Virus record (IMG/VR): IMGVR_UViG_2974613666_000001
Location: 1 to 64,000 of that record
Strand: one strand, 5' to 3'
Source: a virus
Taxonomy: Duplodnaviria > Caudoviricetes
DNA: 64,000 nucleotides
The position numbers and the translations under genes were made by a program. Below the pieces are notes generated by a model. The model was not told the DNA's origin. It saw only the letters and a list, made by a program, of their open reading frames with translations, and did not search any database. Below are positions 7,348 to 64,000 of the stretch, piece by piece; position 1 is the stretch's first letter, and each line of letters begins with the position of its first letter.

Positions 7348-8757
7348 ATGCAAGTTTTTAATATAGCCACGCTTTTCAACAACCTGAATCATTACGTCGC
7401 AGCGCGATCGCCCCTAGAGTTTGATGAGGGTAACGAGTTATTATCTAGCGTTGAAAAGCTTACAGAGTTAGCTATCCAAGGTTATGAACAACCAATTAGA
7501 GACATACTTCAGACTAGATATGCTGGTAAAATATCTGGTTTTAACCGGATTACAGTAGGTGAGAAGAGTGTGAGTGGTGAGTTCTATGATATGTACTCGC
7601 CTTTCCGCACCACTCGCAACACATTTTATATTTCTCCCACAAGAATTGATATTAATGTGATTGGTGGGAGTATGCCAGTTTACTCTGAAGTAGACTTCGC
7701 CGCAGCCGTAAGCAAAACCTGTGGTGATGGGAAAAAACCATGTAAGGTTAAGCGTGGATCAACAGAGTATTTCCGTTGTGTACCTAAAACTTGGAAACGT
7801 GCTGATGAAAAAGCAGCTTTAAAGGGTGCTATTAAGGAAGAAACCAAACGAGCTAAATCAACAGGTAGCTCTAAGCCGTCACCTAAAGAAGCCAAAGTAA
7901 TCGAAGGGATTATTGCTAAGAGAATTGAAGCACAGCAGGAAGGTACTCGGAAGTCTAAAAATAAATATGGGGTTAAGCCAGACGCTACGGCTAAGAAACA
8001 GGCTAAACCAGAGCAGAGATCATTGTTGGAGGGTATGTTCCCACAGTCGCGTAATGTTCCAGGTGCTGATAAGTTGAATGATGCTTTGGGTGAGATTAAT
8101 TCTAGACCTAGCAAAGTAGCCGAGTTAGCAGGTAAGCAAAGCACCAAGCGCAAAAAAGAGCGCAAAGGTAAATCTGATAAAGTTACTGACCTGTTTCAGA
8201 GAAAACTTGAGGAAGGCGATATTGTAGGGGCGATCGACCAAAGTCTACTTTTAGCTGATCAAGGTAAGAAAATAGCTAAAGAAGGCTTAGATAATATTCG
8301 CCGTAATCAGCAGGAAATAGATCAGGAGGTTGAAGACGCTTTAAAACGGTTCCCTAAGTTAGGTGATGATAAACCCGCAACACCCACACCTGATATTAAA
8401 GAACAAATAAATAACTCATTCAAAACCAAAGGCGAAAGGCTAGTTAATCAATCTCTGAACATACTTCTAGACAGGGGCAAGTTTAATCTCAATGACCCCT
8501 CTCAGTTAAAAATACTGGACGACGCAAGAGCTAAGGTTGAGGAACACGCAGAAGCTACGAAGTCCTATTTAGACAAGATTAAGGGTGTTGAAGGTTTAGC
8601 TGCTGAGTCTAGGAGAGAAAAGAAACAAAAGAGACTAGATGTTATCAATTCAGTCTTAAAGCAGTACGATGAGTCGGCAAAACCCAGTAAAGATAAGCAG
8701 AACTTATCTAACTACACCAAATCATCAGAAACTATAAACAGGGTAGCCGAAAGCTAA
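7348..8757 (+). CDS. LFxNL-leader family protein 1 (putative head-packaged protein)
   Basis: IATLFNNLNHY leader, shared N-domain, YSEVDF, Cys knuckle CGDGKKPC..C, Lys-rich C-terminus. Confidence 0.75.
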   Translation: MQVFNIATLFNNLNHYVAARSPLEFDEGNELLSSVEKLTELAIQGYEQPIRDILQTRYAGKISGFNRITVGEKSVSGEFYDMYSPFRTTRNTFYISPTRIDINVIGGSMPVYSEVDFAAAVSKTCGDGKKPCKVKRGSTEYFRCVPKTWKRADEKAALKGAIKEETKRAKSTGSSKPSPKEAKVIEGIIAKRIEAQQEGTRKSKNKYGVKPDATAKKQAKPEQRSLLEGMFPQSRNVPGADKLNDALGEINSRPSKVAELAGKQSTKRKKERKGKSDKVTDLFQRKLEEGDIVGAIDQSLLLADQGKKIAKEGLDNIRRNQQEIDQEVEDALKRFPKLGDDKPATPTPDIKEQINNSFKTKGERLVNQSLNILLDRGKFNLNDPSQLKILDDARAKVEEHAEATKSYLDKIKGVEGLAAESRREKKQKRLDVINSVLKQYDESAKPSKDKQNLSNYTKSSETINRVAES

Positions 8758-43380: not shown

Positions 43381-43895
43381 CTAGGTCAAATAATTGGCAC
43401 AAAGCTCAAAAGAAAGTGGCAAAATTGCATGAACATATTGCTAATACTAGAAAGGACTTTCATTGGAAAATAGCACATCAACTTTGTGATACTGCTCAAA
43501 CTATCTTTGTAGAAGATTTGAATTTAGTGGGATTGTCCAGGGGAATACTTGGCAAGCATTGTCTAGATGCTGGATGGGGACAATTCTTTGAAATTCTGGA
43601 GCAGTGTTGTTTTAAGCGTGGTGTATTTTTCCAGAAAGTAGATAGCCGAAAGACTTCTCAGATTTGCCCTAATTGTAGAATAGAAACGGGTAAAAAAGAG
43701 TTGTCACAGCGTGTTCATGTTTGTGAACATTGTGGCTATACAACTGATAGAGATGTTGCAGCCGCTCAAGTAGTTCTGATTAGAGGACTTGCAGCCGTCG
43801 GGCAGACGGTAAATATGCTTGCTGAGGGTAAATTCGTTGGAATCCCTGTGACGCAAGAATCCCCCCGGCTAGAAGCCGGGGGGAGTGTCAAGTGA
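43381..43895 (+). pseudogene. tnpB: 5'-truncated tnpB with its right end
   Basis: SNNWHKAQKKVAKLHEH...FVEDLN...CPNC..CEHC..DRDVAAA; right end gaatccccccggctagaagccgggggagtgtcaa. Confidence 0.88.
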
Positions 43896-49758: not shown

Positions 49759-52095
49759 TTAGTGATCCCAACCACCCATTATTAGACTTTCTGCTGATTT
49801 CTCCATGTCCTCATAAACCATCACACCATTACCTGTAAATCTTTTCATAGCAGCAAGCATAGAATTTTTTACTATTTCTGCACAATCTAAGGCTTGCTGC
49901 TGCGTACAAGTAGCTACAATCTCATCATGGCATATCAGACCTAATCTCAAATCATACTTGTCTGTAAAGACAGCCTCCTGGTAAACCTTTGCTATGCCAG
50001 ATTTCATGATGTCACTTTCTGTTTTTAACCAGACATTTGCGATAGCACCTTGGGGCATATATGGTCTTCCATCCCCTGAATTTTTGCAGAATACATAAGA
50101 CCGTCTCATGTACCCTTCTGTCTTGTTGGGACAGAAGTCAGTCTGCAATACTCCATACCAATGTCCATCAATTTGTATTTTTTTGTTGTTACCTTGCTTC
50201 CACAAGCTAGTTCTAAGTTTTGCAATTTCGGGGAAAACATCAGGAAAAGCATTTACCATTGCTTCACATATTTCCAGAGGTACATCACGCTTTTGACCTG
50301 TCTTGATGGTGTTCTGCAATGTTGGTGCGCTACCGCAATTTAAGCCACTGTACACGACATTTTTACAGCTTGCCCTTATTGGCTTAAAAATCTTTTGGTA
50401 ACGTTTTGCAGTTTCTATGTCTAAACAAGTTACTTTCTCGAAATGACCACCGTTTATATTACTTATATCTTCTACGCTAAGATGCCTATATTGCTTATAT
50501 TCTTCTACGACAGCAAATACAGATTTCATAGTTATCGCGTGGTTATCCAAACCATTCTCTTCTATGTATTTCATAGTTTTACTTGCATACTCACCGCTAT
50601 AAAACTTTGCAATAGCTAAGTGTGCAGCAGGTAAATCTTGGTCAATAGTATTAAATCCTGCTGGTGACTTGAAAATGTGTCTAACTATCGGGCATCCCAT
50701 TTTTACCAAACTATCAGGCATTTTATTTTCACTGGGCGGATTTTGCAGATTAGCAGCCTGACATTTGACAGGGTTTCTCTTGTTACCTGAACAAGTTCTA
50801 CCTTGCCCTTTACGGGTCAATTGCCTCACCCCACCGGATATCCTTGGTATACCTTCAACCCAGATAATCTCCTGCCTCACTTGCTTGCAATAGTTCATGT
50901 AAATTGCAATCGTGCGGAAATCTACAACCAACTGAACCACACGATGATCACCTAGTAAAGCCAAATCAGATTTACTACTCCCATACTTCACCACAGAGTC
51001 GATCACTTCATGAGTTTCCTGCTCTATCTCCAAATCATCCATATCCTCGTCATCATCATCCGCATCTACACCAGACGATCGCTTGTTAGCCTCAATCTGT
51101 TGGTTGATTTTCTGAACGATTCCCGCTATTTGCTGACTAGATTTGATATTGCAGCCTGGGTGCATCTTGACAAATTCCATCTCAATATCAAGTAACTTGG
51201 CTTGATACCATTTGATTTGCCTCTCCAATTCCACTAAATCAACAGGTAAGCCCCAATGGTTGATTTCTACTAAAGCTGGGGTAAATTCACTTTCTATTTT
51301 AGCTACAGTTTGCAATCCTGCTAACTTAATCTCCTTAGCTAAATGCGTGAATAATCGCTTGGTGTAGCTGATGTCCAGCGCTGCATAGTTGATTTGAGCA
51401 TTTCTTAAAGGTAGTGAGAAATCAGAAGACTGCTCGGTTTTATCAACATCTTTAATCTTCAGATAGCGCTCACAGCAATCTTTTAAGCCGTGGCGATACG
51501 TCAGAATACCTGCTGTCAATAGTTGAGAGAGGATCATAGTGTCATAGCTGATCCACATTTTGACACCCCAGTGAACCCGCAAGAATAGCAAATCAAACCC
51601 GATGTTATGTCCAATAAAGGCTTTTTTAGCTTTGGCAAACTCAATGGTCTTAAACTTTAGGTATTCAATAAACGCCTTATACTTTTCAGACAGTAAGGGT
51701 TTATCCCACTTAGTTTTAAGGTCTACAACCAGCACATCTTTCTGATGGACTGCTGAGATTTGAAATAGCCGGATATCACCATAGTAGGGGGATAATGCCA
51801 TATCCTGTAAGCCGTTCGTGGTTCCCTTTTTCCAGCTACGAGCATTAGTGGTCTTCTTTTTATAAGCCCCATTCTCAGGTGCGATCACACCATAAGTTTC
51901 TAAGTCAAGCACCACCAAGTTACTGCTGAAGCATTCGTTAACAAACTGATAGATTTCATCAGTTATATCTGCGTCGCATCCTACAAACTTTACCCAAGGA
52001 GCTAAAGGTTCCTGATTTTCCACTATTGATATACCGTTCTCAGCCCCGATGCTGGAGAACATATCAAGCTGAGTACCTGCAAGTGTTGCAACCAT
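49759..52095 (-). CDS. polA: Family A DNA polymerase with 3'-5' exonuclease
   Basis: Exo DLET, GHNIGFD, YAALD; polymerase NLQNPP, RxxxKxxxY, CHDEI. Confidence 0.9.
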   Translation of the reverse strand: MVATLAGTQLDMFSSIGAENGISIVENQEPLAPWVKFVGCDADITDEIYQFVNECFSSNLVVLDLETYGVIAPENGAYKKKTTNARSWKKGTTNGLQDMALSPYYGDIRLFQISAVHQKDVLVVDLKTKWDKPLLSEKYKAFIEYLKFKTIEFAKAKKAFIGHNIGFDLLFLRVHWGVKMWISYDTMILSQLLTAGILTYRHGLKDCCERYLKIKDVDKTEQSSDFSLPLRNAQINYAALDISYTKRLFTHLAKEIKLAGLQTVAKIESEFTPALVEINHWGLPVDLVELERQIKWYQAKLLDIEMEFVKMHPGCNIKSSQQIAGIVQKINQQIEANKRSSGVDADDDDEDMDDLEIEQETHEVIDSVVKYGSSKSDLALLGDHRVVQLVVDFRTIAIYMNYCKQVRQEIIWVEGIPRISGGVRQLTRKGQGRTCSGNKRNPVKCQAANLQNPPSENKMPDSLVKMGCPIVRHIFKSPAGFNTIDQDLPAAHLAIAKFYSGEYASKTMKYIEENGLDNHAITMKSVFAVVEEYKQYRHLSVEDISNINGGHFEKVTCLDIETAKRYQKIFKPIRASCKNVVYSGLNCGSAPTLQNTIKTGQKRDVPLEICEAMVNAFPDVFPEIAKLRTSLWKQGNNKKIQIDGHWYGVLQTDFCPNKTEGYMRRSYVFCKNSGDGRPYMPQGAIANVWLKTESDIMKSGIAKVYQEAVFTDKYDLRLGLICHDEIVATCTQQQALDCAEIVKNSMLAAMKRFTGNGVMVYEDMEKSAESLIMGGWDH

Positions 52096-52245
52096 ATTTT
52101 GTTAAAAGCAGTGAGTATTGTTTAGAGAGTCACGCTATGTCAGCTATAGCACTATATCGCATTGCTACCTGATATACGTTATTGACATTGCTGTAAATAT
52201 ATTCTAGCATTGTTGCTATAACTACCATAAGAGAATAAACCAGAA

Positions 52246-52596
52246 ATGGCAATAGCGATTAGAAAATATACCAGATCGTTCATAGACCTGTTGGAACTAG
52301 ACCTTAACCTAGATTTATGGGGCGAGGTGGTAGAAGTGTTATCTAACTGTCCCGAACCTAACTGGACTAGCCCAGAGCTTTATTTTGCCTATGACCGGAA
52401 TAGGATAATCGGTTTTATCCTTGGTAGCAACGGTTGTAAGTGCTATTACATATCTGTAGACTATCGTTATCGAAATCAAGGCATCGCCTCAGAACTGGTT
52501 AGGGTTTCTGGATTTTACGAACCCCACGATATCTACAACAGCAGTGAGGCTAGAGGGTTCTGGGCTAGTGTAGCTCAAAGTATGGTGGCAGCATGA
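52246..52596 (+). CDS. GNAT family acetyltransferase
   Basis: IIGFI...YISVDYRYRNQGIASELV...ARGFW. Confidence 0.8.
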   Translation: MAIAIRKYTRSFIDLLELDLNLDLWGEVVEVLSNCPEPNWTSPELYFAYDRNRIIGFILGSNGCKCYYISVDYRYRNQGIASELVRVSGFYEPHDIYNSSEARGFWASVAQSMVAA

Positions 52597-52928
52597 CCAA
52601 ACTTTCCCACCTTTACACAATCGCCCCCACCCATACACAACTGAATTTAAACCAAGCGGTATGGTGGGTGTGTTTCCTTCTTAAATCCAGCAACACGTAT
52701 CACACAGACATCAAAAATAAGTTACAGCGAGATTACCCAAACTTTAAATTGTCTAGTTGCATACTAGATCAAGCATTAAGTCTGCTGAGGAATGAGAAAC
52801 TTGTAACCACTACAGACCAACCAACAGGTACAAGAGGGGCAAAAAGAAAGATTTACGCGATCGCACCTGCGGGTCAATCTTTGGTTAATGATTTCGCTAA
52901 TTTATGGAGGCAATTCACCAATGGTTAG
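52593..52928 (+). CDS. PadR-family regulator, cyanobacterial Pex (period extender)-like
   Basis: QAV...L....Y.T.....L..DYPNFKLS..IL..AL..L...RGAKRKIY...FANLW. Confidence 0.7.
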   Translation: MTKLSHLYTIAPTHTQLNLNQAVWWVCFLLKSSNTYHTDIKNKLQRDYPNFKLSSCILDQALSLLRNEKLVTTTDQPTGTRGAKRKIYAIAPAGQSLVNDFANLWRQFTNG

Positions 52929-53121
52929 TATATCAGCTACTACATTAGACCAGTTAGTTAAATTAACCAAGTTAGACAGGAAAAATATACACCTTATTCT
53001 GGATACTTACCCAGAGCTAGTCAATAATGATCCAGCTACTCTTGATGTGAACAATCTGGCTGATCTCATAAATGACAACAAGTTTGACCTAGTAACAAGT
53101 CTCAATAAATATCGCTGGTGA
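52921..53121 (+). CDS. Small hypothetical protein
   Basis: ATG 52921 with GGAGG RBS, overlapping the upstream stop. Confidence 0.55.
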   Translation: MVSISATTLDQLVKLTKLDRKNIHLILDTYPELVNNDPATLDVNNLADLINDNKFDLVTSLNKYRW

Positions 53122-53125
53122 AATT

Positions 53126-53341
53126 ATGACTAACTTTGATTCGCCAAAACTACCTTACTGCTTACCACTACATTTCAAGGACTTCTATGGTAGCCTGACA
53201 GATGATCAGAAAACCTACCTGATCTCAGAATTAGTAGACAGCCATCCTCACAACGTTGCATCCTTTATTGAGAAATTAAAGGAATCCGCTAAACGTGATA
53301 GTGAACTACCAGATAATGATCTTTTTGATTGGGACGCATAA
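53126..53341 (+). CDS. Small hypothetical protein
   Basis: Tightly packed operon. Confidence 0.55.
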   Translation: MTNFDSPKLPYCLPLHFKDFYGSLTDDQKTYLISELVDSHPHNVASFIEKLKESAKRDSELPDNDLFDWDA

Positions 53342-53343
53342 TA

Positions 53344-53559
53344 ATGTCACTATCTAAAGAGTTTTTTCTGAAAGTTAGGGCTAAGGCTGGTTTGGCAGTC
53401 TTTACCTTACGGAAGATTGCCTTGTACTACTCTGAATATATAGAAGATGGTGGGAGTGATGCAGATGTTGAAAGGTTTGTTGCTTTTATCGAAGAGAACC
53501 GGGACGATATTTTAGCAAATGTAAATCGCTACACCATCCTAGACCAATTCATAGTTTAA
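53344..53559 (+). CDS. Small hypothetical protein
   Basis: Tightly packed operon; ATG 53344. Confidence 0.55.
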   Translation: MSLSKEFFLKVRAKAGLAVFTLRKIALYYSEYIEDGGSDADVERFVAFIEENRDDILANVNRYTILDQFIV

Positions 53560-53563
53560 AAAA

Positions 53564-55027
53564 ATGTCATTAGTAAATAAGTACAGACCCCAGAGGCTAA
53601 CCCAAATAGTTGGGCAACGTTCCACAGTAATGTGTCTCAAGAACGCTATAAACCGCCAGACTTTACACCCTGCTTACTTATTCAGTGGTGAACGTGGTAC
53701 AGGTAAAACTTCCACAGCCCGTGTAATTGCAAAGTCTTTAAATTGCCAAAGAGGCTTAACAACAGAACCTTGTGGAGAGTGCAGCAACTGTAAATCCATA
53801 CAATCTGGTGGTGCGTCGCTGGGAGTAAATGAAATAGATTGCGCCACCAATAACGGTGTAGACTTTGCCAGAGACTTGGTTAGCAAAATCTATTACGCGC
53901 CGATGTCCAATTACAAAGTTTATGTTTTTGACGAGGCTCATAATTTAACCAGACAGGCTTTCGACGCTTTATTAAAATGCCTTGAGGATTCAGGTAGTAA
54001 GGTAATTTTCATTCTCGTAACTACTGAACCTAACAAAATACCCAAAACAGTACAATCTCGTTGTCAGCACTTCCAATTTACACCACCTTCTCACAGCGAT
54101 GTTGTAAACTACTTGCGATCGCTCCTCGCCCTAGAAAACTTATCTGTGAGCGATGAAATTCTAGAGTTGATTGCTGAACATACAGATGGTGTATTAAGGG
54201 AGGCTTTAACTCTGCTGGATAAAATAGCACTGTCTGGTTTTACTGAAGTTAATGATGTTTACGAGCTACTGAATAAACCGCAACCTACAGACATTCATAA
54301 GTTACTTGCGTGCTGCGTAAAGCAAGACTATCAAGGTATTTATCGTGAACTGAAAGCCGTAAATAAGTCTGGTGCAGATCCTTTAAAAGTGCTGGGAGAT
54401 ATCGCCAACTTCATCAGAAACGCAATTGTTGGTTACAGTAAACCAGACTATAAGCTGATGACCACTGATACAACTACTTTTAAATTAGCTAGTCAGTGGG
54501 GGCGATCGCTTCCCCAATCTACTCTAGTTGACTGTGTGATCATGCTGCGTAAGGCTGAAATTGATTTTATAGCAGCTAAGTTTCCGAAGCTTTATCTGGA
54601 GTCAGTTTTACTTGAGTTATCTAAAATGATGACACTTACTAAAAATGAGTTTACATCTGCTCAAAGTAAACCAACAGTCAAACAGTTGCAACAAGTAGAA
54701 ATGGAAACTGGATCAAACCTAATAACCAACTGTTACTACAATTGCGATAATCCCGTTCTATTAACGTTACCTGAGTTTGAACCTGTAGAACCTTGCGTCA
54801 GAACTGCAATGCTCTGGCAACAGCTTTGTCAAACAGAACCGATGAACAAACTAAGAACTAAAATAGTTGAGTATCAATGGTATGAGCAGGATCTAATGAT
54901 TGTGCTTGACGCAAGTGTTGGTGCTAAACCTAATGTTAAAGAGTTAGCAGCATCAAGGATTAAAGAAGCCCAACGTGCGATCGGTATGCAGCCCTACGAT
55001 TCAATAAATGTGGTAGTGCATTATTAA
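53564..55027 (+). CDS. dnaX: DNA polymerase III gamma/tau-like clamp-loader subunit
   Basis: KYRPQ, GERGTGKTS, C4 zinc module, DEAH, SRC arginine finger. Confidence 0.9.
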   Translation: MSLVNKYRPQRLTQIVGQRSTVMCLKNAINRQTLHPAYLFSGERGTGKTSTARVIAKSLNCQRGLTTEPCGECSNCKSIQSGGASLGVNEIDCATNNGVDFARDLVSKIYYAPMSNYKVYVFDEAHNLTRQAFDALLKCLEDSGSKVIFILVTTEPNKIPKTVQSRCQHFQFTPPSHSDVVNYLRSLLALENLSVSDEILELIAEHTDGVLREALTLLDKIALSGFTEVNDVYELLNKPQPTDIHKLLACCVKQDYQGIYRELKAVNKSGADPLKVLGDIANFIRNAIVGYSKPDYKLMTTDTTTFKLASQWGRSLPQSTLVDCVIMLRKAEIDFIAAKFPKLYLESVLLELSKMMTLTKNEFTSAQSKPTVKQLQQVEMETGSNLITNCYYNCDNPVLLTLPEFEPVEPCVRTAMLWQQLCQTEPMNKLRTKIVEYQWYEQDLMIVLDASVGAKPNVKELAASRIKEAQRAIGMQPYDSINVVVHY

Positions 55028-55121
55028 ATTGTGCTACTGTGGCGTTATGAGTGTTGGTGGTACATACGCTTTGCTTTGATTTTGAGTGTGTACTTCTGTC
55101 ATTTGTTTTACCTTTTATATC

Positions 55122-55161
55122 AAACCCGCGAACCCTTTGTTGAGTAGGTCGCGGGTTTTTT
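55122..55161 (+). terminator. Intrinsic terminator
   Basis: aaacccgcga...tcgcgggttttttt. Confidence 0.75.
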
Positions 55162-55227
55162 GTTGGTCATACACAGCACGTCATTAAATTACTAGCCTTA
55201 ATGATATAGAGCTAAACAATTAAAATA

Positions 55228-56481
55228 ATGCAAATATCCCAAAACTGTATAGACCTTATAAAGGAGTTTGAAGGTTTCCGATCCAGTGCTTATCTATGCC
55301 CGGCTGGTGTACCTACTATTGGCTACGGTACTACGATTTATCCCAACGGCGCAAAGGTGGCTACGCAGGATACAATCACACGGCAAGAAGCAGAAGATTT
55401 TCTAGAGGCTTCTGTCCTGCAATTTTCCAAGGCTGTAAATAGCGAAGTAAATGTAAAACTAAATCAAAACCAGTTTGATGCTTTGGTATCGTTTGTGTAT
55501 AACGTTGGTATTGGTGCTTTTAAAAGTAGCACCATGTTGAGACTGATCAACGCCAATAAAATATCTGAAGCGGTTGATGAGTTTCCCAAGTGGGATAAAG
55601 CAACTGTAAATGGCAAGAAAGTATCACTAACAGGATTAGTACGTCGTAGAGAAGCAGAACGGAAACTATTTAACACTAGCGCTGTAACTGCTCAACCTTT
55701 AACTGCTCAACCTGAGTCGGTTCAGGAATCAGTAACATGGCTTAAAGAGTATACCGAGAAGGGTAAAAAGGTTGTAGTTACTTATGGCGGTTCGACTATC
55801 TGTGAGATTCTGCAATTTGAGTATTCACCACCGGAAGATTACTTACGAGAGTTACTAAAGACTTACCCGAACGCAAATAATTCTCATATAGCAACACCTG
55901 GGGAAAGTGTGCCGAAGGGCGATCGTGTTTTCATTATGGATCGCTCTTGCCTAGATTCTAGAAGTGAATTAGCCCAAAATGTTGTCAAGTCAGCCAAGAG
56001 TTTTTTAAGGTTGACAAAAACCAAGAGTAAAGACCAGTTTGGCTGTTATATACTCAAGCTAGATTACTTTAAGAATGGCGTGCTGGTGGATTCTTTAAAC
56101 ACTTGCTCAGGCATTGCTAGTAGGCAATATTTTAGAAAAGGAGTAGATAGTGTAGCTAGAAGTCTAGAACCTTTACCTGAAGGGTCATGGCGAATAGAGA
56201 ATATTAAGTGGGCAGGTGGTAGAGGTAACTGGAATCAGGTATTTAACTCCGGTGTAGGCGCTGTAAGCGTACCCTTAACTTATATCTCACCGGGAAGTAC
56301 CCGCCGAAGTGCAATAGAGGTGCATATTGACAATAACCGCAAGTCAGCCCCAGGTACAGCAGGTTGTGTAGGTGTCTACAATCGTGCTGATATGGAGAGG
56401 TTTCTAGGCTGGTTGTATGACACTGATCCTAGAGACTTTTACTGTGATTGGGGGCTGGGTTCTTGTCCGAAGATTGAGTAG
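55228..56481 (+). CDS. Endolysin: GH24 lysozyme plus C-terminal L,D-transpeptidase-like (DUF2778/Tlde1-like) domain
   Basis: IKEFEG..AY.CPAGVPTIGYG...GLVRRR.AE; PLPEG.W...IEVH.D.....GTAGCV. Confidence 0.85.
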   Translation: MQISQNCIDLIKEFEGFRSSAYLCPAGVPTIGYGTTIYPNGAKVATQDTITRQEAEDFLEASVLQFSKAVNSEVNVKLNQNQFDALVSFVYNVGIGAFKSSTMLRLINANKISEAVDEFPKWDKATVNGKKVSLTGLVRRREAERKLFNTSAVTAQPLTAQPESVQESVTWLKEYTEKGKKVVVTYGGSTICEILQFEYSPPEDYLRELLKTYPNANNSHIATPGESVPKGDRVFIMDRSCLDSRSELAQNVVKSAKSFLRLTKTKSKDQFGCYILKLDYFKNGVLVDSLNTCSGIASRQYFRKGVDSVARSLEPLPEGSWRIENIKWAGGRGNWNQVFNSGVGAVSVPLTYISPGSTRRSAIEVHIDNNRKSAPGTAGCVGVYNRADMERFLGWLYDTDPRDFYCDWGLGSCPKIE

Positions 56482-56535
56482 TCGGTTGATAACAATAAAA
56501 AACCTCTAAGTATACATCCTTAGAGGTTTTTTCAT

Positions 56536-57126
56536 TCAAAATAGATCCAACTGCTTATTCTGTCCAACTCTAGACAACTTAGGATTTATAGACCATAAAT
56601 TAATCGAGTAACGATCGCTCGCGCATCTTATAGCTGCGTGGGGATTTTTGCAATTGAAAAGTACCACCGCACCAGAGGGTAGTTCAAAGGTTTCACGTTC
56701 TGGTGTAAAATCCTGCTTCCCGTAGCAATATCCTGGGTACATTGCTTGATATCCCCACAAGGTTGATTTGCTGGTTAGATTAATGCTCACTGCTGGGTAG
56801 TCTGCATAAGTTGCATCTCTATGCCAGTTTATCCCCACAGAACCATAAGCGACCAAGCCTAATGCAGATTTTGGTTGATAATCCAAACCAGTGTGCTGCA
56901 TCGCCCGGTCAAAAATAGTGCTGCACCAATCCCATAACCGAGGTAACTTGTGAGCTTTATTAAATACTGGTTCCTTGTCCAATGTGGGTTGAGATTTTAA
57001 CCAAAAGCGTTGTCTACCTTTTGCATAACTACTGACATCCCTTTGTAGTAGTTGCTGGTGTTGGTCAAGATATTCGCGGATCTGTTGCTGTTGGGTACTT
57101 GAGATAACTTTAATGATTTGTAGCAT
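56536..57126 (-). CDS. AlkB-like 2OG-Fe(II) dioxygenase
   Basis: INWHRD (HxD), PHAA, RYSINLW. Confidence 0.8.
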   Translation of the reverse strand: MLQIIKVISSTQQQQIREYLDQHQQLLQRDVSSYAKGRQRFWLKSQPTLDKEPVFNKAHKLPRLWDWCSTIFDRAMQHTGLDYQPKSALGLVAYGSVGINWHRDATYADYPAVSINLTSKSTLWGYQAMYPGYCYGKQDFTPERETFELPSGAVVLFNCKNPHAAIRCASDRYSINLWSINPKLSRVGQNKQLDLF

Positions 57127-57209
57127 TACACTTGTTTTACCTTTGTGCTGATTATTATATCACGTTGTATATGCTACATTTGAAATAGTTTATTTAAAAT
57201 TCTAAAAAT

Positions 57210-60200
57210 ATGTCGCTGTCTCACCTGTTCCACAACCTACGCGAGTACACAATTGGTAAAAATGGAATTGAAACCGCCAACCTACTCACACCATCAAAAA
57301 CGATCGCAGCTATCCGCAAATGTGAAGAAAACCAACTAGAGTTTGCCGAGTTCATGGAAAGTGAGCAGGATTACAAGCGATTGGGCTTGGAGCTTAAATC
57401 CGTACTTGAGAATGTCTATGGTGACACTATTGATGGTTTTGAGGGTGTGAAGGTTAGCAATGGCGAGATTAAAGGGTTTTTCTTCAGTAATTTATCACCT
57501 ACTCTAGTTAAGAAATTCCAGTTTACAGCGTCGCCGCAGGGAATTTACTTTGAGCTAATTAACGCCAATGAAATTAATAATGCTAATGTAAGTTTCCAGG
57601 AAGCTGGCTTATATGCTAATGATGTTGTAGATTTTGCTACGGCTGCAGGTGATAAAAAGAAGCGAGTAATTAAGAATTGCTCAGAGGGAAGTAAAACTTG
57701 TCACGGTGCGGACGGTAAAACCAAATACTGCATCAATAAGAATTTCAAGTGTGCTACAGAACGAAAAGCCACACCAGCCGAGCGCAAATCCAGAACTGTA
57801 AAACCATCACCAGAGGACGCAGCTAAGTTAGAGAAAATTGTACAGCGTGGGGAAGTTGCAGCCGAGAAATTCACCAAAGCACGAGTAAGTAAGGATAAGT
57901 TAGCCAAACTTGATCAGCAATTGCGCGATGAATTAAGCACAGGTGGTGAGGTTGACGTACTGAAGTTGCAACGGAAGCTGAAGTACCCCGCAACTACATA
58001 TGGTAATGACCCTCTAAATAATCCAGTAAATCGGCTACTGGCTGATATGCGGACTAAGGGAGAACTTGAGGCTAATGAGTCAGGTGATAAGGTTAAGTTA
58101 TCTAAATCTGATAAATCATCAGAAACTATAAACAGTAAAACTGCTAAAAACCAAGAATCAGCTAAAGGAAGTGATAAGATAGCTGATACAGGTAAAACAA
58201 AAGGTAAAGCAGTGTTAGAGTCAAAATCTAAGACAATAAAAGAAGCTGAGATAGCCCACAAAAAAATATCCGATGATATCGCAGCTAAAACTAGAAAGTT
58301 CGGAATAGATGAGATATTCAAAGACGATTACCTTTTCAACCCTACTGGCATGGAGGTATTGATCAGAAAGGATGCTAAGTTTATTCCAGCGAAAGTAGTT
58401 TCCTTACAAACTAGCTACAAAGACAACTTAAATAAGGCTACACCTACAGGTCGGTTGGTTGTGGAGACTCAAGACGGTACTAGAGCGTTGAGAATGAGTA
58501 ACGGAATATTAGATAGTAAAAAAGTAAGTGCTGATGATCTTAAAGAGATGAATGCACTTGCTAAACAACAAAGTGAAGCTATGGTAACGCTGAAGAAATC
58601 TGATGAAGACTACTACTATACTAAAAACCTAAACGCACTAGACACCCTAAAAACCCAACAAGTAGAACTACTAGATAAAATCGCCGCCGCAAAAACTCCA
58701 GCCGAGAGACGATCACTCAATAAGGAATTGCAAGCTACCCGTAAAGAAATGGATGCTTTGAAGGCAGGGGACAATAAAAAAGAAGAATGGCGAAAACAAT
58801 CTGAACAAAGTTATGACAAAGCTTTCAATGGTGAAAAGTTCTCCTACGACACCAAGGAAGGTAAAATTATAGCCAAGTATGTACAGGGTAGAGATGGTGT
58901 AAATTACCTAAAGATGTACAAAGATGACAGTGACAACCCGTTCCAAAGTCCAATAATGAATAGATCCGAGTTATCTAACTTTATTGACGGTCTTCATAAT
59001 CCTAAAATTCAGGATGCAAGCGGATTTAACTCAACACCAGTGTTTGATAAGAAAGGCACTCGTAAAGAAATGGAAGATTTGAAGGTTGGGGGCGATCGTG
59101 GTGGGGAAGGCAAGGAAGTAGCCAAAAAAGTACCACAATCTGAAAAGAGCTATGAACAGATAGCCCAAGAAAGAGAAGGTGCTGACTTGACTTACAGACA
59201 GGCAAAAGATGCTCCTAAAGGGGGGGCTGTAAACCAGAATTATGGTAATTCGCAAGCAACTATTGCTGATGCACTAAACCGTAAAGTATTTGGCGTTGGT
59301 AATGGTGAAAAAATCTACAACTGGGCTAAAAAGCATGATGTGGATTTATTCAAATTGCAAATGGATGCTAATAACGATTTTTCTATATCAACAGACGGTA
59401 AAAGGTCAGCAGACAACAGAGCGCTGATGGATGCCGTTGTGATGGGTAAGCCTTTCAAGAAAACTGCGCCCACAGTAAAAACCAAACCCGAACCCGAACC
59501 CGAACCCGTAGCGGAAACCAAGCCTCGTAAAGTTGGTAACTCAGAAGTAGGGTCAGTTTACGATGGAGATAAGAGGCTAGAACATCACGTCTCAATCAAC
59601 GGTAAATCAGAGCATCTTTTCAGTGTGCTAGGTAAAGATAAGTACGGTGAGTTCAAAGATCAATTAGCAGAACTCCAAAAGAAAAATAACTACGACTTAT
59701 CAAAGTACGAACCGGAACTAGATAAGTTGGTAGATGGTTTTATAGCTGATAAGCAAAATCCAGAACCAGTAGTCAGGGGTACTGCTAACACTTCTAAAGC
59801 AGGAGTTCCAACTTACACACGCGATCGCACCCCCGCAGAAGTGGATGAGTACAACCAGCACTTAGATAAGGTTGCTAAGGGGCTGAAAGCTGTTAAGGGT
59901 GAGGTTGCCTTAGCTTTCAGAACCAGAGGTGGCGGTACAGTTACTAAATCTGTAAAAGCTACTGTCTATGGTGAGAGTGGGCTAGCCTACGCGCCTAAAA
60001 CAGATGCAATGGGTGAGGAAGGATTTAGCACACTTAGCGCACTTGTTCACGCTGCATCAGGTTTGAAAATAATAGAAGTTTCTACGGCTAAGGAAGCTAA
60101 ACGGCTGTCCGGACTGTTGGCTGATAGTGGTATTGACTTCAGTAATCCCGATTTAACTACAGATGCGGACGTAGCTTATAAACTACGAGCAATTGTGAAA

Positions 60201-61742
60201 GGTACAGGTATTGCGCCTAATAAGTTACCTAAGCAGTTCACACCTCCCGATAGCTGGGGGAAAGGTGCTGATGTTAAATCTGAAGCTGGTAAGGAAGTTA
60301 AAACACAGGCATCTAAAACAAGCACTGGAGGCAAGCCAACAGTAGCTACTCTACAAAAGCAATATGCCGATGTGGGATTAACATTTGAAAAAGATCAGGA
60401 TAACAACAGATATCCGTACAAAGTTACTAATGCTGATGGGAAGTTTAACAGGTATAAGACTCTATCTGAGGCTAGGGAAGCATTACCAAAATTAGCTGAA
60501 ACAGAGAAGACTAGAGCATCTAAAACAAGTGTGACTAGCAGCAAATACGAAGTGGAAGATTTTGAGGCAGCAGAGGGAGTTGCTAAATTGGAGAGTGATC
60601 TTAGGATGGCGGATGGTATGCTAAAAGCCATTAAAGAAACTATCACAGCACTGGACGATGAATTAAAGGATGTTAAGGGTAGTAAGCGTAACAGCTATAC
60701 CGTAAGTGGGTTATCCGGTAAGAAAAAACTCACTAAGGAACAAATGATATCCTCCATATTAGATAAACAAGAGGATTATAAAAATATGATTCAGCAAGCG
60801 GAGGATAGGAGGAAAAAAACTAAAGATGGTTTGAGTAAAGTACCAGAAGATGCAACTAAAGCATACAACTACCTATACAAGAGAGTAGACCCAGATAGTA
60901 TAACCTCTGAATATGGCTTAATAGAAGCTGGTAAGAAACGCGGTTTTAAAGTAGGTAAAAGGTTTGGCAACTACATCATTGACCAAAACAAATACGATAG
61001 TGATTACAAACTACCTACAAAACTAGGGTCTGATTTGGAAGAAGCCGTTTACGGACTAAACACAGCTATTGCGAGAGGTGAATTTGTAAAATCCTTAAAC
61101 ACTTCACCGGACATCGAAGTATCTATGCAGGGCGAGAGTTATACGGTTTTAAATAAGAAGACAGGTGAGGAGCAAAGATTTGAGTTCTATAGAGGATTTG
61201 AGGATGTCAAAAAAGCTGTAGACTCTTTCTCAAACACTCAAAATAAACAAAACAGCACCGTAAGCAACATCAAAGGTTTAGAAGAGCGAAACAAACAGAA
61301 ACTAGCGAAGTCAAGTGCATCGGAAGCGCGATCGCTCGTAGAAAACCTAACTAACGCTCAGGACGTACTCAAAAAACTAGACGAGTATGAACTGGTGGAA
61401 GGTTCTAAAAGGAATCGTTGGTTTAGTCCAGACCCCAAGGATGATGTTATGGACGATGAAGACTACAACGACGCTGTAAAATCAGCCCAAAATGAACTCA
61501 AGGACACCTACACCCGCTTGTTACCATCAACCAAAATCAAAGGGCTACAACCAGATTTACTTGGTGGTGACATGACTGCGATCGTTTCTCTCCCTGGTGG
61601 TGGTACTGAGGTGTGGAATACTTCTAAGGTCAAACCTGCTAAGGATGTTCCTAGCTTGCAGGATAAGGAAAGTGGGTTGTATGTCTATCCCACGTTGCCT
61701 GTGCAGGAGAAGGTTGAGAGTAAACCCAAAAAACGAACCTAG
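57210..61742 (+). CDS. Giant LFxNL-leader family polyvalent protein (1510 aa)
   Basis: LSHLFHNLREY leader, shared domain, FAEF/FQE/VDF, Cys knuckle, many Lys-rich modules. Confidence 0.8.
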   Translation: MSLSHLFHNLREYTIGKNGIETANLLTPSKTIAAIRKCEENQLEFAEFMESEQDYKRLGLELKSVLENVYGDTIDGFEGVKVSNGEIKGFFFSNLSPTLVKKFQFTASPQGIYFELINANEINNANVSFQEAGLYANDVVDFATAAGDKKKRVIKNCSEGSKTCHGADGKTKYCINKNFKCATERKATPAERKSRTVKPSPEDAAKLEKIVQRGEVAAEKFTKARVSKDKLAKLDQQLRDELSTGGEVDVLKLQRKLKYPATTYGNDPLNNPVNRLLADMRTKGELEANESGDKVKLSKSDKSSETINSKTAKNQESAKGSDKIADTGKTKGKAVLESKSKTIKEAEIAHKKISDDIAAKTRKFGIDEIFKDDYLFNPTGMEVLIRKDAKFIPAKVVSLQTSYKDNLNKATPTGRLVVETQDGTRALRMSNGILDSKKVSADDLKEMNALAKQQSEAMVTLKKSDEDYYYTKNLNALDTLKTQQVELLDKIAAAKTPAERRSLNKELQATRKEMDALKAGDNKKEEWRKQSEQSYDKAFNGEKFSYDTKEGKIIAKYVQGRDGVNYLKMYKDDSDNPFQSPIMNRSELSNFIDGLHNPKIQDASGFNSTPVFDKKGTRKEMEDLKVGGDRGGEGKEVAKKVPQSEKSYEQIAQEREGADLTYRQAKDAPKGGAVNQNYGNSQATIADALNRKVFGVGNGEKIYNWAKKHDVDLFKLQMDANNDFSISTDGKRSADNRALMDAVVMGKPFKKTAPTVKTKPEPEPEPVAETKPRKVGNSEVGSVYDGDKRLEHHVSINGKSEHLFSVLGKDKYGEFKDQLAELQKKNNYDLSKYEPELDKLVDGFIADKQNPEPVVRGTANTSKAGVPTYTRDRTPAEVDEYNQHLDKVAKGLKAVKGEVALAFRTRGGGTVTKSVKATVYGESGLAYAPKTDAMGEEGFSTLSALVHAASGLKIIEVSTAKEAKRLSGLLADSGIDFSNPDLTTDADVAYKLRAIVKGTGIAPNKLPKQFTPPDSWGKGADVKSEAGKEVKTQASKTSTGGKPTVATLQKQYADVGLTFEKDQDNNRYPYKVTNADGKFNRYKTLSEAREALPKLAETEKTRASKTSVTSSKYEVEDFEAAEGVAKLESDLRMADGMLKAIKETITALDDELKDVKGSKRNSYTVSGLSGKKKLTKEQMISSILDKQEDYKNMIQQAEDRRKKTKDGLSKVPEDATKAYNYLYKRVDPDSITSEYGLIEAGKKRGFKVGKRFGNYIIDQNKYDSDYKLPTKLGSDLEEAVYGLNTAIARGEFVKSLNTSPDIEVSMQGESYTVLNKKTGEEQRFEFYRGFEDVKKAVDSFSNTQNKQNSTVSNIKGLEERNKQKLAKSSASEARSLVENLTNAQDVLKKLDEYELVEGSKRNRWFSPDPKDDVMDDEDYNDAVKSAQNELKDTYTRLLPSTKIKGLQPDLLGGDMTAIVSLPGGGTEVWNTSKVKPAKDVPSLQDKESGLYVYPTLPVQEKVESKPKKRT
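59784..59882 (+). repeat. 99-bp perfect direct repeat, copy A (contains HIP1)
   Basis: Identical to 62095-62193. Confidence 0.95.
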
Positions 61743-62094
61743 TACACCAAAAACACCGACTCCCGTAAAAATAGGAAACTTGCAAATAGCTGTAAATCCT
61801 GCCTTACATTCCGAACTTAACCTAGAGTTTGACCCCGTAACAGCGTGGACGATAACAGGTAAGGACGGTCAAAAAGTTAGGGAATCTATAAAGCTTGATA
61901 AGACTCAACCAATTGTGAGGTTTAAAACCAAAGACGCTGCTGAAAGGTTTGCTCAGAAAATTCTTAAGTCTGCTGAAAAGTTAAATGTCTAGTTAGGGGT
62001 TTGTAACTGTTCGGTAATTTCTACCTATAACTAGACAAACCTAACGGAACGTCCATATAATTAACTCAGTCAAGTAAAGGAGTTAATTATATGG

Positions 62095-62193
62095 GCTAAC
62101 ACTTCTAAAGCAGGAGTTCCAACTTACACACGCGATCGCACCCCCGCAGAAGTGGATGAGTACAACCAGCACTTAGATAAGGTTGCTAAGGGG
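62095..62193 (+). repeat. 99-bp perfect direct repeat, copy B
   Basis: Identical to 59784-59882. Confidence 0.95.
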
Positions 62194-64000
62194 TTGAGAG
62201 CGGTTAAGGGTGAAGTGTCTATTCCCGTTTCTGAGTGGGGTAAAGGAGTATCTACAAAGACAGTTCCTGCGACTATTTATGGTGGAACTGGGTTAGCATT
62301 TACAACCAATAACTTTACCTATACATCACCGTCGTCCGGTAAAACAGAAGAGTTTGTTACCAAGACACTAACCCATGTCCCCACAGGTATGAAGATCCTT
62401 GATGTCAGCAGTGAGAAACAGGCAAGGAAGCTAGTAGCACTTTTAGCAGAAAGCGGTGTAGATTTAACCAGCCCCGATTTGAATAAAGACGGGGATACCT
62501 TATCCAAGCTGGTGAAGATTATAAAGGGATCTGGTGTGACCCCACAAACAGGTATACCTAAGAAATTGAATGCTCCTGATAGCTGGGGGAGTTCAACAGC
62601 CAGCAAACCAACCCCAGATGTAACAAAAGATAGTGTAAAGCAAACTACTAGAGCAACACCAAAACCAGACGTATCAGAGGCTAGCCCATCAAAAGATGAG
62701 ATTAAACAAAAGCAGTCAGATGTGTTAGAAAAATACTCTGCTAAAACTAAAAAACCTGACTCAGTAAGAGAACTAATAGATAGCCTGGATCTAGGTACTG
62801 GTAAAGCCAACGAAGCAAAATCTTTTCTAAAACGTAATCTAGAGAACAAGATTGAAAGGAAGTCTATCACTGAGGAAGATTTTAATAACGCCTTTAGCAA
62901 CAGTTCCAACTTCATCCCAGAAGCAGATAGAAAAGCTGTAAAAGAGCAGTTCATCAAAGGTTTCTCAGATATTGGTGTTTCAATCGTCAAGTCTGCTATG
63001 AGTGACAAGCAGGTGAAGTTGTCCGATGCAAAAGCTCTCATAGTACAGGCTAATAATCTCAGAGAGCTAGGTAATTCATCTGAAGCAGAGAAATTAGAGT
63101 CTGAAGCTAAAAGGCTTAGAACAGAAGCTAGACAAGTACAAGAACCTGAGAAGAAAACCAAACCAACCACCAACGAAGACAGGAATAAGGAAATTAAGGT
63201 AGCAGATAAAGAAACCAAACCCACAACTACTGAAGATATTAAAAAAGCCAAAGTAGTCGCTGATCTAGAGCTTCAGAAGTTGCAAGATGAGAGCAATATC
63301 AGTAATTTTCAAGACCAGATAGCTAAACTTGATGGTGAGCTAAAGGAAGTCCAGGAAAGCAAACGCAATAGTTATACTGAAAAAGGTCTGAACAAGCGCA
63401 AGCTCAACAAAAAAGAGAAAATAGCAGATATTCTCGAAAAGAAGGAGTTTTTCAAAACTGCCACTGAATCAGCAAACAAGCGGTTAGCTAAAATCGCTGA
63501 TGATTTAGATAACACACCAAAAGAAGCTAAGGACGCTTACAATTCTCTTTACAGAAGCATAGATCCAACGGCTATAAAATCATTTGAAAATTTAGCAGAG
63601 GCGGGTAATAGGTTCGGTATGCTCATTGACAGAATGGGTGGAGATTATGTTATTAGAAGGCAACCAGCAGGTAGTAATATTTACGTACAGCCGACAACAT
63701 TAGGTAGTGACCTCACAAGAGCTACCAACAGACTAAATGAAGAATTAGCTAGGGATAAGTTCATAAAATCTCTGAATACATCTCCTGATATCAAAGTCAG
63801 CGTAGCTGGTGGTGATTATGTAGTAGAGGATAAGAGAACGGGTAAAAAAGACCGATACTCACATTACAAAGATTTTGAGGATATTGAAAATGCTGTTAAC
63901 ACTTTGAAAAAACAACAAAGTAGACAAGACAGCACAATAAGTAATGTCAAAGGTTTAGAGGAGCGCAATAAACAGAAACTAGCAAAATCCAGTACATCTG
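62095..64000 (+). other. Headless alternative C-terminal cassette paralogous to the 3' half of 57210..61742 (runs off the window)
   Basis: Manually translated open frame of more than 630 codons, from ANTSKAGVPTY... to ...KGLEERNKQKLAKSS; the upstream ATG (62091) is out of frame. Confidence 0.8.

Follow-up and report, generated by a model that had tools for sequence, protein, structure and literature searches.

A giant Nodularia-phage gene followed by a start-less copy of its C-terminal half: probable false duplication of two alleles

The giant gene and the frame downstream of it

The window analyzed here is a stretch of 64,000 nt from a viral record of 145.4 kb, and its last part carries a giant gene, A, followed by a second long open frame, B (Table 1). 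The protein encoded by A is basic, lysine-rich and hydrophilic in composition and has no match in Pfam, PHROG, NCBIfam or PDB; its gene adjoins replication and lysis genes, outside the structural module. The first ~200 residues form a four-cysteine domain, found also at the start of two further genes of this phage (7348-8757 and 19682-21298). The N-terminal half is 99.2-99.3% identical at the nucleotide level to that of the sister phage kac65v162, and is identical in two proteins from other assemblies, P0011 and P0013. Within the C-terminal half, positions 59932-61247 gave no match in other phage records.

Table 1. Features of the giant-gene locus (positions in the window unless stated otherwise)
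Feature	Position	Strand	Basis or remark
Gene A, giant 1510-aa protein, A-type allele	57210..61742	+	ORF
Conserved N-terminal half, codons 1-858, common to all alleles	57210..59783	+	Nucleotide identity and protein matches
U copy 1	59784..59882	+	Exact length 99, flanking bases differ; contains HIP1
A-type allele-specific segment (C-terminal half of A and small overlapping ORF)	59883..61995	+	
Conserved tail patch (TYTRLLPSTKIKGLQPDLLGG...LYVYPTLP)	61485..61682	+	A/B comparison
Small 92-aa ORF, +1 frame	61714..61992	+	TTG start after GGAG; overlaps end of A
V copy 1	61996..62094	+	99-nt perfect repeat; native copy at 65015-65113
Blunt joint between V end and U start, suspected artificial join	62094..62095	+	Three-way alignment
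U copy 2	62095..62193	+	99 nt; opens frame B
B-type allele-specific segment	62194..64000, on to 65014 outside the window	+	Last base of frame B, 65025, falls in V copy 2

The 92-aa ORF at the end of A is the same as kac65v162 gp080, and the B-type allele lacks it. A programmed frameshift, or a sequencing error, at an A6 run linking A to this ORF was considered and rejected, because kac65v162 has the same two-frame layout with A9, despite the 3-nt difference in the run, and because the GGAG-TTG start is available.

Frame B is open from 62065 to 65025 in the whole record, with 976 codons counted from the repeat at its head, which bears out the original prediction of a headless downstream frame of more than 630 codons. 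No ATG, GTG or TTG stands in this frame ahead of GTG 62152, and this GTG lacks a Shine-Dalgarno sequence. The frame shows no decay: an intact 1834-aa gene from an independent contig has the same 976 residues (976/976) as its C-terminal half, and the middle part of kac65v162 gp079 matches the first 1.1 kb of the B-specific segment at 97.5% identity. The genes tnpA and tnpB of an IS607 element follow directly. The further cassettes to be looked for beyond 64000 did not appear, either downstream or elsewhere, when A and B were searched against the whole record by tblastn.

Alternatively, B might be a normal gene translated in its own right, whether a free-standing paralogue or a gene that a sequencing frameshift in the GGG run (ATG-G-GCT) has interrupted. 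A short distance upstream there is a strong AAGGAG-N8-ATG, and with one G fewer this ATG would be in frame with GCT AAC; the public record moreover annotates a 957-aa protein from GTG 62152 (P0009). However, the stretch from the ribosome-binding site through the ATG to the G after it reproduces the IS607 tnpA start exactly (all 99 nt recur at 65015-65113 and match kac65v162) and stands one base out of frame with B (ATG-GGC-TAA). These signals are thus not B's own. The GTG without a Shine-Dalgarno sequence also speaks against this reading, as does the finding that, in all other assemblies, B starts as codon 859 within a longer gene, and we consider it very improbable.

The C-terminal halves of A and B share the motifs PDSWG, SKRNSYT, KSLNTSPDI and KGLEERNKQKLAKSS and differ in their middle modules, in agreement with the earlier description of the two as diverged paralogs. 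Between the A-specific segment and B, synonymous sites are saturated (pS ~0.7) and amino acid identity is ~49%. Judged by this comparison, the two halves are true, deeply diverged homologues, and the alleles are under purifying selection. In the tail patch, A and B are 97% identical in amino acids and 90-92% in nucleotides (pS 0.31-0.38, pN 0.01). This patch is so rich in synonymous changes that its conservation results from selection at the protein level, and not from conversion; by these values it is under strong purifying selection. It is also kept in a distant orthologue, P0004.

Two 99-nt repeats and the joint between the units

Both units open with a perfect direct repeat, U, at the place where a 99-bp repeat containing HIP1 had been noted near codon 859; our analysis confirmed this, and base 59784 is base 1 of codon 859 exactly. 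HIP1 (GCGATCGC) lies in both copies, at 59821 and 62132, and the copies are spaced 2311 nt apart in equal codon phase. A wider match (59784-59905 against 62095-62216) is 97% identical over 122 nt, of which the first 99 are perfect. Both units are closed by a second perfect repeat, V, also of exactly 99 nt, whose second copy lies beyond the end of the window and was read from the whole record. Apart from U and V, no exact repeat in the 145.4 kb exceeds 36 nt, which is the length of the next one in size. U terminates one base before the first difference between A and B (59883/62194), and V begins one base after the last (61995/65014).

The first copy of V runs into the second copy of U at ATGG|GCTAAC (context …GGAGTTAATTATATGG|GCTAACACTTCTAAAGC…), and the three-way alignment shows no microhomology at this joint. 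The two sequences abut at arbitrary places, 4 nt into the tnpA ORF on one side and at codon 859 of the giant gene on the other. V copy 1 contains a promoter-like site found by promoter scan (62032-62061), a hairpin (62053-62094), and the Shine-Dalgarno sequence (62077-62082) and ATG plus G (62091-62094) of IS607 tnpA; the tnpA start aligns with gp081 of kac65v162. The joint coincides exactly with the 3' end of a 15-bp hairpin arm, and a real breakpoint at the hairpin end, for example by template switching, could fit its position too.

Identity along the copies is patchy, complete (100%) in U and V against 90-92% in the tail patch, as would be expected of an old tandem duplication in which gene conversion, or selection acting on the DNA, had preserved the identity of the two ends. 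However, conversion tracts would not both be exactly 99 nt long, nor would they end at a blunt joint, and the synonymous changes of the tail patch argue against conversion there as well. Furthermore, a start-less frame of 976 codons would not have escaped interruption, nor kept 100% identity with a functional allele elsewhere. Since the alleles are ancient inside (dS saturated) and their flanks are perfect, divergence in place after a duplication cannot explain the arrangement, and we give this history hardly any credence.

Single-gene versions in other phages and the origin of the tandem

Each version of the locus is known as a single gene. P0011, a protein of 1834 aa encoded on an ENA contig of 66 kb, matches A[1-858]+B[1-976] at every residue; it and P0008 (1834 aa) carry the B type as one intact gene, and P0003 carries the A type. 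P0013 is a single-gene chimera of 1716 aa (A 5', B 3') with its breakpoint in the tail patch, and kac65v162 has one mosaic gene, gp079, with the layout A/B/C/A. The chimera and the mosaic suggest that the C-terminal half is exchanged by recombination between related phages. The comparison of relatives called for in the original prediction brought out an exchange of modules between phages, but each version was a single gene, and the tandem was present in this record and in no other that was compared. Protein-pattern scans of IMG/VR with B, A2 and P0004 returned no independent DNA of the locus, and nothing was found by a scan of viral and metagenome contigs for the exact 40-nt repeat core, by a metagenome scan with P0013 or by a scan of GTDB genomes for the locus, although near-identical records may have been outside the reach of these scans. 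Neither a primary account of these phage genomes nor their assembly method came up in a literature search.

These observations, taken from the signature that the sequence itself carries, argue that the tandem is very probably a false duplication of two co-occurring alleles, and not a stored cassette. The sequenced stock, a Nodularia siphovirus of the Ravarandavirus group, would have contained two genotypes that differed in one giant gene, in its C-terminal half: an A type encoding 1510 aa and the 92-aa ORF, and a B type encoding one protein of 1834 aa. With overlaps of 99 nt, these versions would open a bubble in a de Bruijn graph, each branch of the bubble would carry the entering 99-mer (U) and the leaving 99-mer (V). 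If both branches were written consecutively at finishing, the order ...U-A-V|U-B-V... would result, and from this order it follows that frame B would be the second half of an alternative allele rather than an orphan cassette. The actual biology would then be a hypervariable, modular C-terminal half that co-infecting relatives swap by homologous recombination, with crossovers in the conserved N-terminal half, in the conserved tail patch and in the IS607 region further downstream.

The locus has the marks of such a bubble: identical sequence bounds the alleles on both sides, and its length of 99 nt would be that of the assembler overlap; the flanks reach up to the outermost variants and no further, exit and entry flank meet without a gap, and each version occurs alone in independent assemblies or relatives. 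A spare stored cassette, as originally predicted, is thus unlikely. The prediction had also taken the perfect identity at the junction as a sign of recent recombination or conversion; no conversion is needed, since U would be a k-mer of the shared backbone. An overlap of 99 fits commonly used k-mer settings. Standard assemblers do not themselves join the branches of a bubble. A manual or reference-guided finishing step must therefore be assumed, which counts against a false duplication, as does the need for a mixed stock with two genotypes that are alike in large-scale structure everywhere but at this locus. The absence of decay in B would, in addition, be equally expected of a real illegitimate recombination that was very recent.

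The tandem would be physical if one illegitimate crossover between co-infecting variants had joined an A-type genome, 4 nt into tnpA, to a B-type genome at codon 859. This would leave a silent, start-less B cassette, and the halves could be swapped or deleted by recombination at U (99-122 nt), the tail patch or V. The predicted product of recombination between the U copies exists exactly, as P0011, and so does an A5'+B3' product of the tail patch, as P0013; both are the deletion products expected from the order A then B. The joint at the end of the hairpin is also in keeping with a physical event, and the duplicated promoter-like site of tnpA would then drive transcription of B. However, ordinary allelic exchange between genomes explains P0011 and P0013 equally, so that the predicted in-frame swap of the C-terminal half is upheld as regards its fusion product and the recombination among relatives, but does not call for a cassette. 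The kac65v162 mosaic, in which a 5' part of B precedes the A tail, is not a deletion product of the A-then-B order. Furthermore, both breakpoints would by chance have to lie exactly 99 nt from the first and last allelic difference; on the rough assumption that a breakpoint falls anywhere within ~2 kb of an allele boundary, the chance is ~1e-5 or less. With no other record showing the tandem, we regard a physical tandem as improbable and favor a false duplication.

Comparison with known systems and consequences for the record

Assemblies are known to place two divergent alleles next to each other by mistake, an error class termed false heterotype duplication (Ko et al. 2022, PMC9516828). As in that class, one sequence contains two divergent versions of the same locus in direct succession, the additional copy is truncated and has produced a spurious gene call (the 957-aa "hypothetical protein"), and other assemblies have one copy. 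The present case differs in that its source would be a mixed viral stock and not a diploid genome, and in that the join is seamless and without Ns; the evidence is the k-mer-length flanks and not read depth.

The original prediction compared the arrangement to the orphan cassettes of Rhs, CdiA and MafB. The likeness is real in form: a start-less copy opens with a stretch identical to the main gene (99-122 nt) and continues into a divergent C-terminal part, and an in-frame swap by homologous recombination is geometrically possible. In content, however, the analogy fails. A regular-expression search found no demarcation motif (VENN, PxxxxDPxGL and similar) in A or B, and Pfam, NCBIfam and PDB gave no toxin domain in the variable C-terminus. 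No immunity gene follows B, where the IS607 genes lie, nor is there anything behind B to match the 92-aa ORF that follows A and overlaps its end. The carrier is a lytic-type cyanophage, the supposed cassette ends in a duplicate of the start of the next gene, and the arrangement is probably not physical. A physical cassette, which we hold to be unlikely, would mean a phage counterpart of Rhs/CdiA orphan-cassette switching at identity patches of 99 nt to ~200 nt, with its products P0011 and P0013 already in environmental assemblies.

Mosaic evolution of phage genes, such as those for tail fibres and host range, offers a further comparison. Here too, the backbones are 97-99% identical and the C-terminal half has at least three module types (A, B and the kac65v162 middle), with crossovers in conserved patches and alleles that are deeply diverged under purifying selection. 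In contrast, the giant protein is not similar to known tail fibres or receptor-binding proteins, and its gene lies next to replication and lysis genes. Large polyvalent proteins have reportedly been described from phages and conjugative elements (Iyer et al. 2017). The giant protein resembles them in being very large, hydrophilic and multi-modular with a module content that varies between relatives, but Pfam (E<=0.01, at which remote homology is possible) detected no LPD, ArdC-N, MPTase, helicase or methylase module in it. Unlike shufflons and diversity-generating retroelements (DGR), the A and B copies stand in direct orientation and have diverged along their whole length rather than at adenine-specific sites, and there are no inverted repeats of at least 25 nt in 52000-64000.

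Searches of Pfam, PHROGs and NCBIfam with A, B, the small ORF, P0004-P0006 and the two paralogues of the N-terminal domain gave only a GH-E match below the cut-off (20.7 against 25 bits), and neither a GHE nor an HNH motif is present in A or B. A PDB sequence search returned nothing, and the ESM Atlas gave no usable hit, the sole pointer to large polyvalent proteins being a meaningless row with TM 0.13. The AF2 model of the N-terminal domain was too poor for use (pLDDT 54). That of the tail was usable (pLDDT 72), and Foldseek and VIA-align gave only generic helical-hairpin matches for it (Z <= 7.7). Our guess, made with low confidence, is that the giant protein is a host-interaction protein, acting in host range or counter-defence, under diversifying selection.

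If the tandem is a false duplication, the public record carries ~2.3-3.0 kb of false sequence and a spurious 957-aa gene, and the true locus is one gene, of 1510 aa (with the 92-aa ORF) or of 1834 aa. Pan-genome and comparative work on Nodularia phages would then count a gene gain that never happened. The C-terminal region is probably a fast-exchanging, host-interaction module, which may bear on the coevolution of Nodularia and its phages (host range, resistance). The stock apparently held two genotypes, and the environmental assemblies and the sister isolate show further recombinants.

Two exact 99-nt repeats and the start-less frame

The perfect 99-bp repeat containing HIP1, as claimed in the original prediction, was found: U, which begins at codon 859 of A, the gene for the giant protein, forms the perfect first 99 nt of a match that is 97% identical. 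The downstream frame homologous to the C-terminal half of A, here called B, is indeed headless, with no ATG, GTG or TTG ahead of GTG 62152. In the whole record, B is open to 65025, giving 976 codons counted from the repeat. The SD and ATG ahead of B are the copied start of the transposase gene tnpA (ATG-GGC-TAA), one base out of B's frame. Thus, B is truly start-less and begins at an arbitrary point inside a longer gene. A second perfect direct repeat, V, is also exactly 99 nt long; it represents the region upstream of tnpA and ends with the first four bases of that ORF (ATGG). The first unit (U, A-specific part, V) stops just as arbitrarily, 4 nt into tnpA. Apart from U and V, no exact repeat in the record exceeds 36 nt. 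The locus reads N-half (codons 1-858 of A), U, A-specific part, V, U, B-specific part, V and tnpA, and the end of the first V meets the second U bluntly (ATGG/GCTAAC).

The first A/B difference (59883) follows directly on U, and the last (61995/65014) directly precedes V. Such an arrangement is precisely what a graph assembler working with 99-nt overlaps makes of a two-allele bubble: every branch opens with the entry 99-mer, runs through the allele-specific part and closes with the exit 99-mer, and writing both branches into one sequence yields U-A-V/U-B-V with a blunt joint. Assemblies are known to place two divergent alleles side by side in error, a class of fault termed “false heterotype duplication” (PMC9516828). 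A real illegitimate crossover has no reason to place both breakpoints exactly 99 nt from the variable region; if, as we roughly assume, such a breakpoint may fall anywhere within ~2 kb, the joint probability is on the order of 1e-5 or lower. Judged from sequence, the tandem, and with it the storage of B as a spare cassette, is most likely an artefact that arose from a k=99 bubble in a mixed stock. This reading accounts for both repeats being 99 nt long, for their coincidence with the allele boundaries and for the blunt joint, as well as for B's borrowed out-of-frame start, its lack of any trace of decay and the occurrence of the tandem in this record only. Against it, the branches must have been joined in some finishing step, and the joint falls at the 3' end of a hairpin arm. 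Real breakpoints might favour such an end; we rate this as a modest coincidence beside the double 99.

V also contains a near-consensus promoter-like site (TAGACA-18-TATAAT). The SD and ATG of tnpA are likewise buried there in a perfect hairpin of 15-17 bp (-22 kcal/mol, z = -7), which probably restricts translation of the transposase. The end of A is overlapped by 29 nt by a 92-aa ORF in the +1 frame (GGAG-TTG start), which is kept as gp080 in the sister phage kac65v162, despite an upstream A-run of A6 versus A9 (in frame). The B-type allele lacks this ORF and has a 206-aa in-frame extension in its place.

Features of the record (positions above 64,000 lie outside the window)
Feature	Position	Strand	Basis or remark
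Gene A	57210-61742	+	ORF, 1510-aa product
Repeat U	59784-59882; 62095-62193 (97% match extends over 59784-59905; 62095-62216)		
Repeat V	61996-62094; 65015-65113		
Promoter-like site and hairpin in V	62032-62094; native copy 65051-65113		
tnpA, IS607-family transposase	65110-65748		resolvase and MerR-HTH domains
92-aa ORF	61714-61992		
Tail patch	61485-61682		
PEPEPEP linker	59480-59500		A residues ~759-765
B middle module	62700-63140		B residues 210-348
~200-aa N-terminal domain	57210-57850 (A); 7348-8757; 19682-21298		genes encode 1510, 469 and 538 aa
Lysozyme gene	55228-56481		two upstream of A
Inverted, displaced element	43384-43891		kac65v162 139024-138517
Inverted, displaced element	105862-107432		kac65v162 116057-114486

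Divergence of the two versions and single-gene forms

As predicted, A and B are diverged homologues with different middle modules: A[859-1510] and B share 52% identity over 646 aligned codons, and 49% past the first 41. Common to both are an N-terminal domain ending in PDSWG, the SKRNSYT...KSLNTSPDI...KGLEERNKQKLAKSS region and a near-identical tail patch; B carries the 206-aa extension relative to A. Codon by codon, nucleotide identity is 100% in U and falls immediately to 44-60%, with saturated synonymous sites (pS ~0.7). In-place divergence after duplication is ruled out by the perfect flanks around this ancient interior, a pattern that fits two old alleles within one near-identical backbone. 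In the tail patch, the protein is 97% and the DNA 90-92% identical (pS 0.31-0.38, pN 0.01). Selection on the protein, not conversion, maintains the patch.

The predicted in-frame swap has its product in P0011, an ENA protein of 1834 aa from a 66,395-nt contig in which every residue matches A[1-858]+B[1-976], although allelic exchange yields the same product. P0008 differs from P0011 only by N860D, and P0003 (1514 aa, ENA) is of the A type, with a single substitution and an inserted PEPE. P0013 (1716 aa, JGI/IMG, 50-kb contig) consists of A[1-1497] and then the last 257 aa of B; these parts overlap by 38 identical residues, which places the crossover inside the tail patch. In kac65v162, a single gene, gp079 (1628 aa), occurs without a second copy. 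Its C-terminal half is A-type for ~50 aa, B-type for ~365 aa (~99% aa identity), of a third type for ~230 aa and ends in an A-type tail, followed by gp080 and IS607. These independent single-gene forms mean that, elsewhere, B is normally the C-terminal half of an intact gene; among the compared assemblies and kac65v162, both halves occur together in this record only. We consider it improbable that the tandem is real and very recent. Its predicted resolution products would be P0011 and P0013, but both are obtained equally by allelic exchange between genomes, and a deletion within a tandem that has A before B does not give the kac65v162 order (B 5' part, then A tail). The single-gene forms equally show that the C-terminal half really is exchanged between genomes in nature; such swapping of modules among phages is a familiar phenomenon.

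The proposed likeness to cdi, rhs and maf orphan cassettes fails on content: no toxin, immunity or demarcation motif was found in A or B, and membership of Rhs, CdiA or Maf is rejected.

The giant protein and its modules

The product of A is lysine-rich, basic and strongly hydrophilic in composition, and the giant protein had no match in Pfam, PHROGs, NCBIfam or PDB. Searched exhaustively with HMMER, 1.84 billion representatives yielded only the A cluster, the distant 1522-aa orthologue P0004 and the small proteins P0005 and P0006. The last two, which are unrelated metagenome proteins, have the middle module of B in common, suggesting that it behaves as a mobile domain; it corresponds to the C-terminal part of both P0005 (294 aa) and P0006 (345 aa).

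The ~200-aa N-terminal domain common to three genes of the window has four conserved Cys residues (KNCxxGxKxC...C...C) and a KPSP motif, is also present in P0004, matched no known family and may have a shared role in targeting or assembly. In the AF2 model of the conserved tail (pLDDT 72), a helical hairpin is accompanied by a small beta-sheet; structural comparison gave no specific match. From its size, modularity and deep co-occurring alleles, our guess is that the giant protein has a host-interaction role, in host range or counter-defence. The PEPEPEP linker is a slippage-prone repeat within the conserved N-half: its length varies between assemblies, P0003 having an additional PEPE, and one ENA contig (P0012) breaks there.

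The record and its nearest relative

The virus record comprises 145,400 nt, of which the window is the first 64 kb. Its nearest public relative is Nodularia phage vB_NspS-kac65v162 (MK605244, genus Ravarandavirus), with collinear blocks 90-99.4% identical; the two are collinear mosaics in which approximately ten segments, each 0.7-3.3 kb long, have been replaced. Between them, two short elements are inverted and displaced, in keeping with mobile TnpB/IS-type elements. The second gene upstream of A codes for a phage lysozyme domain (E = 5e-47); fused to it is a weak YkuD-like L,D-transpeptidase region, whose match (E = 2e-3) falls below the cut-off.
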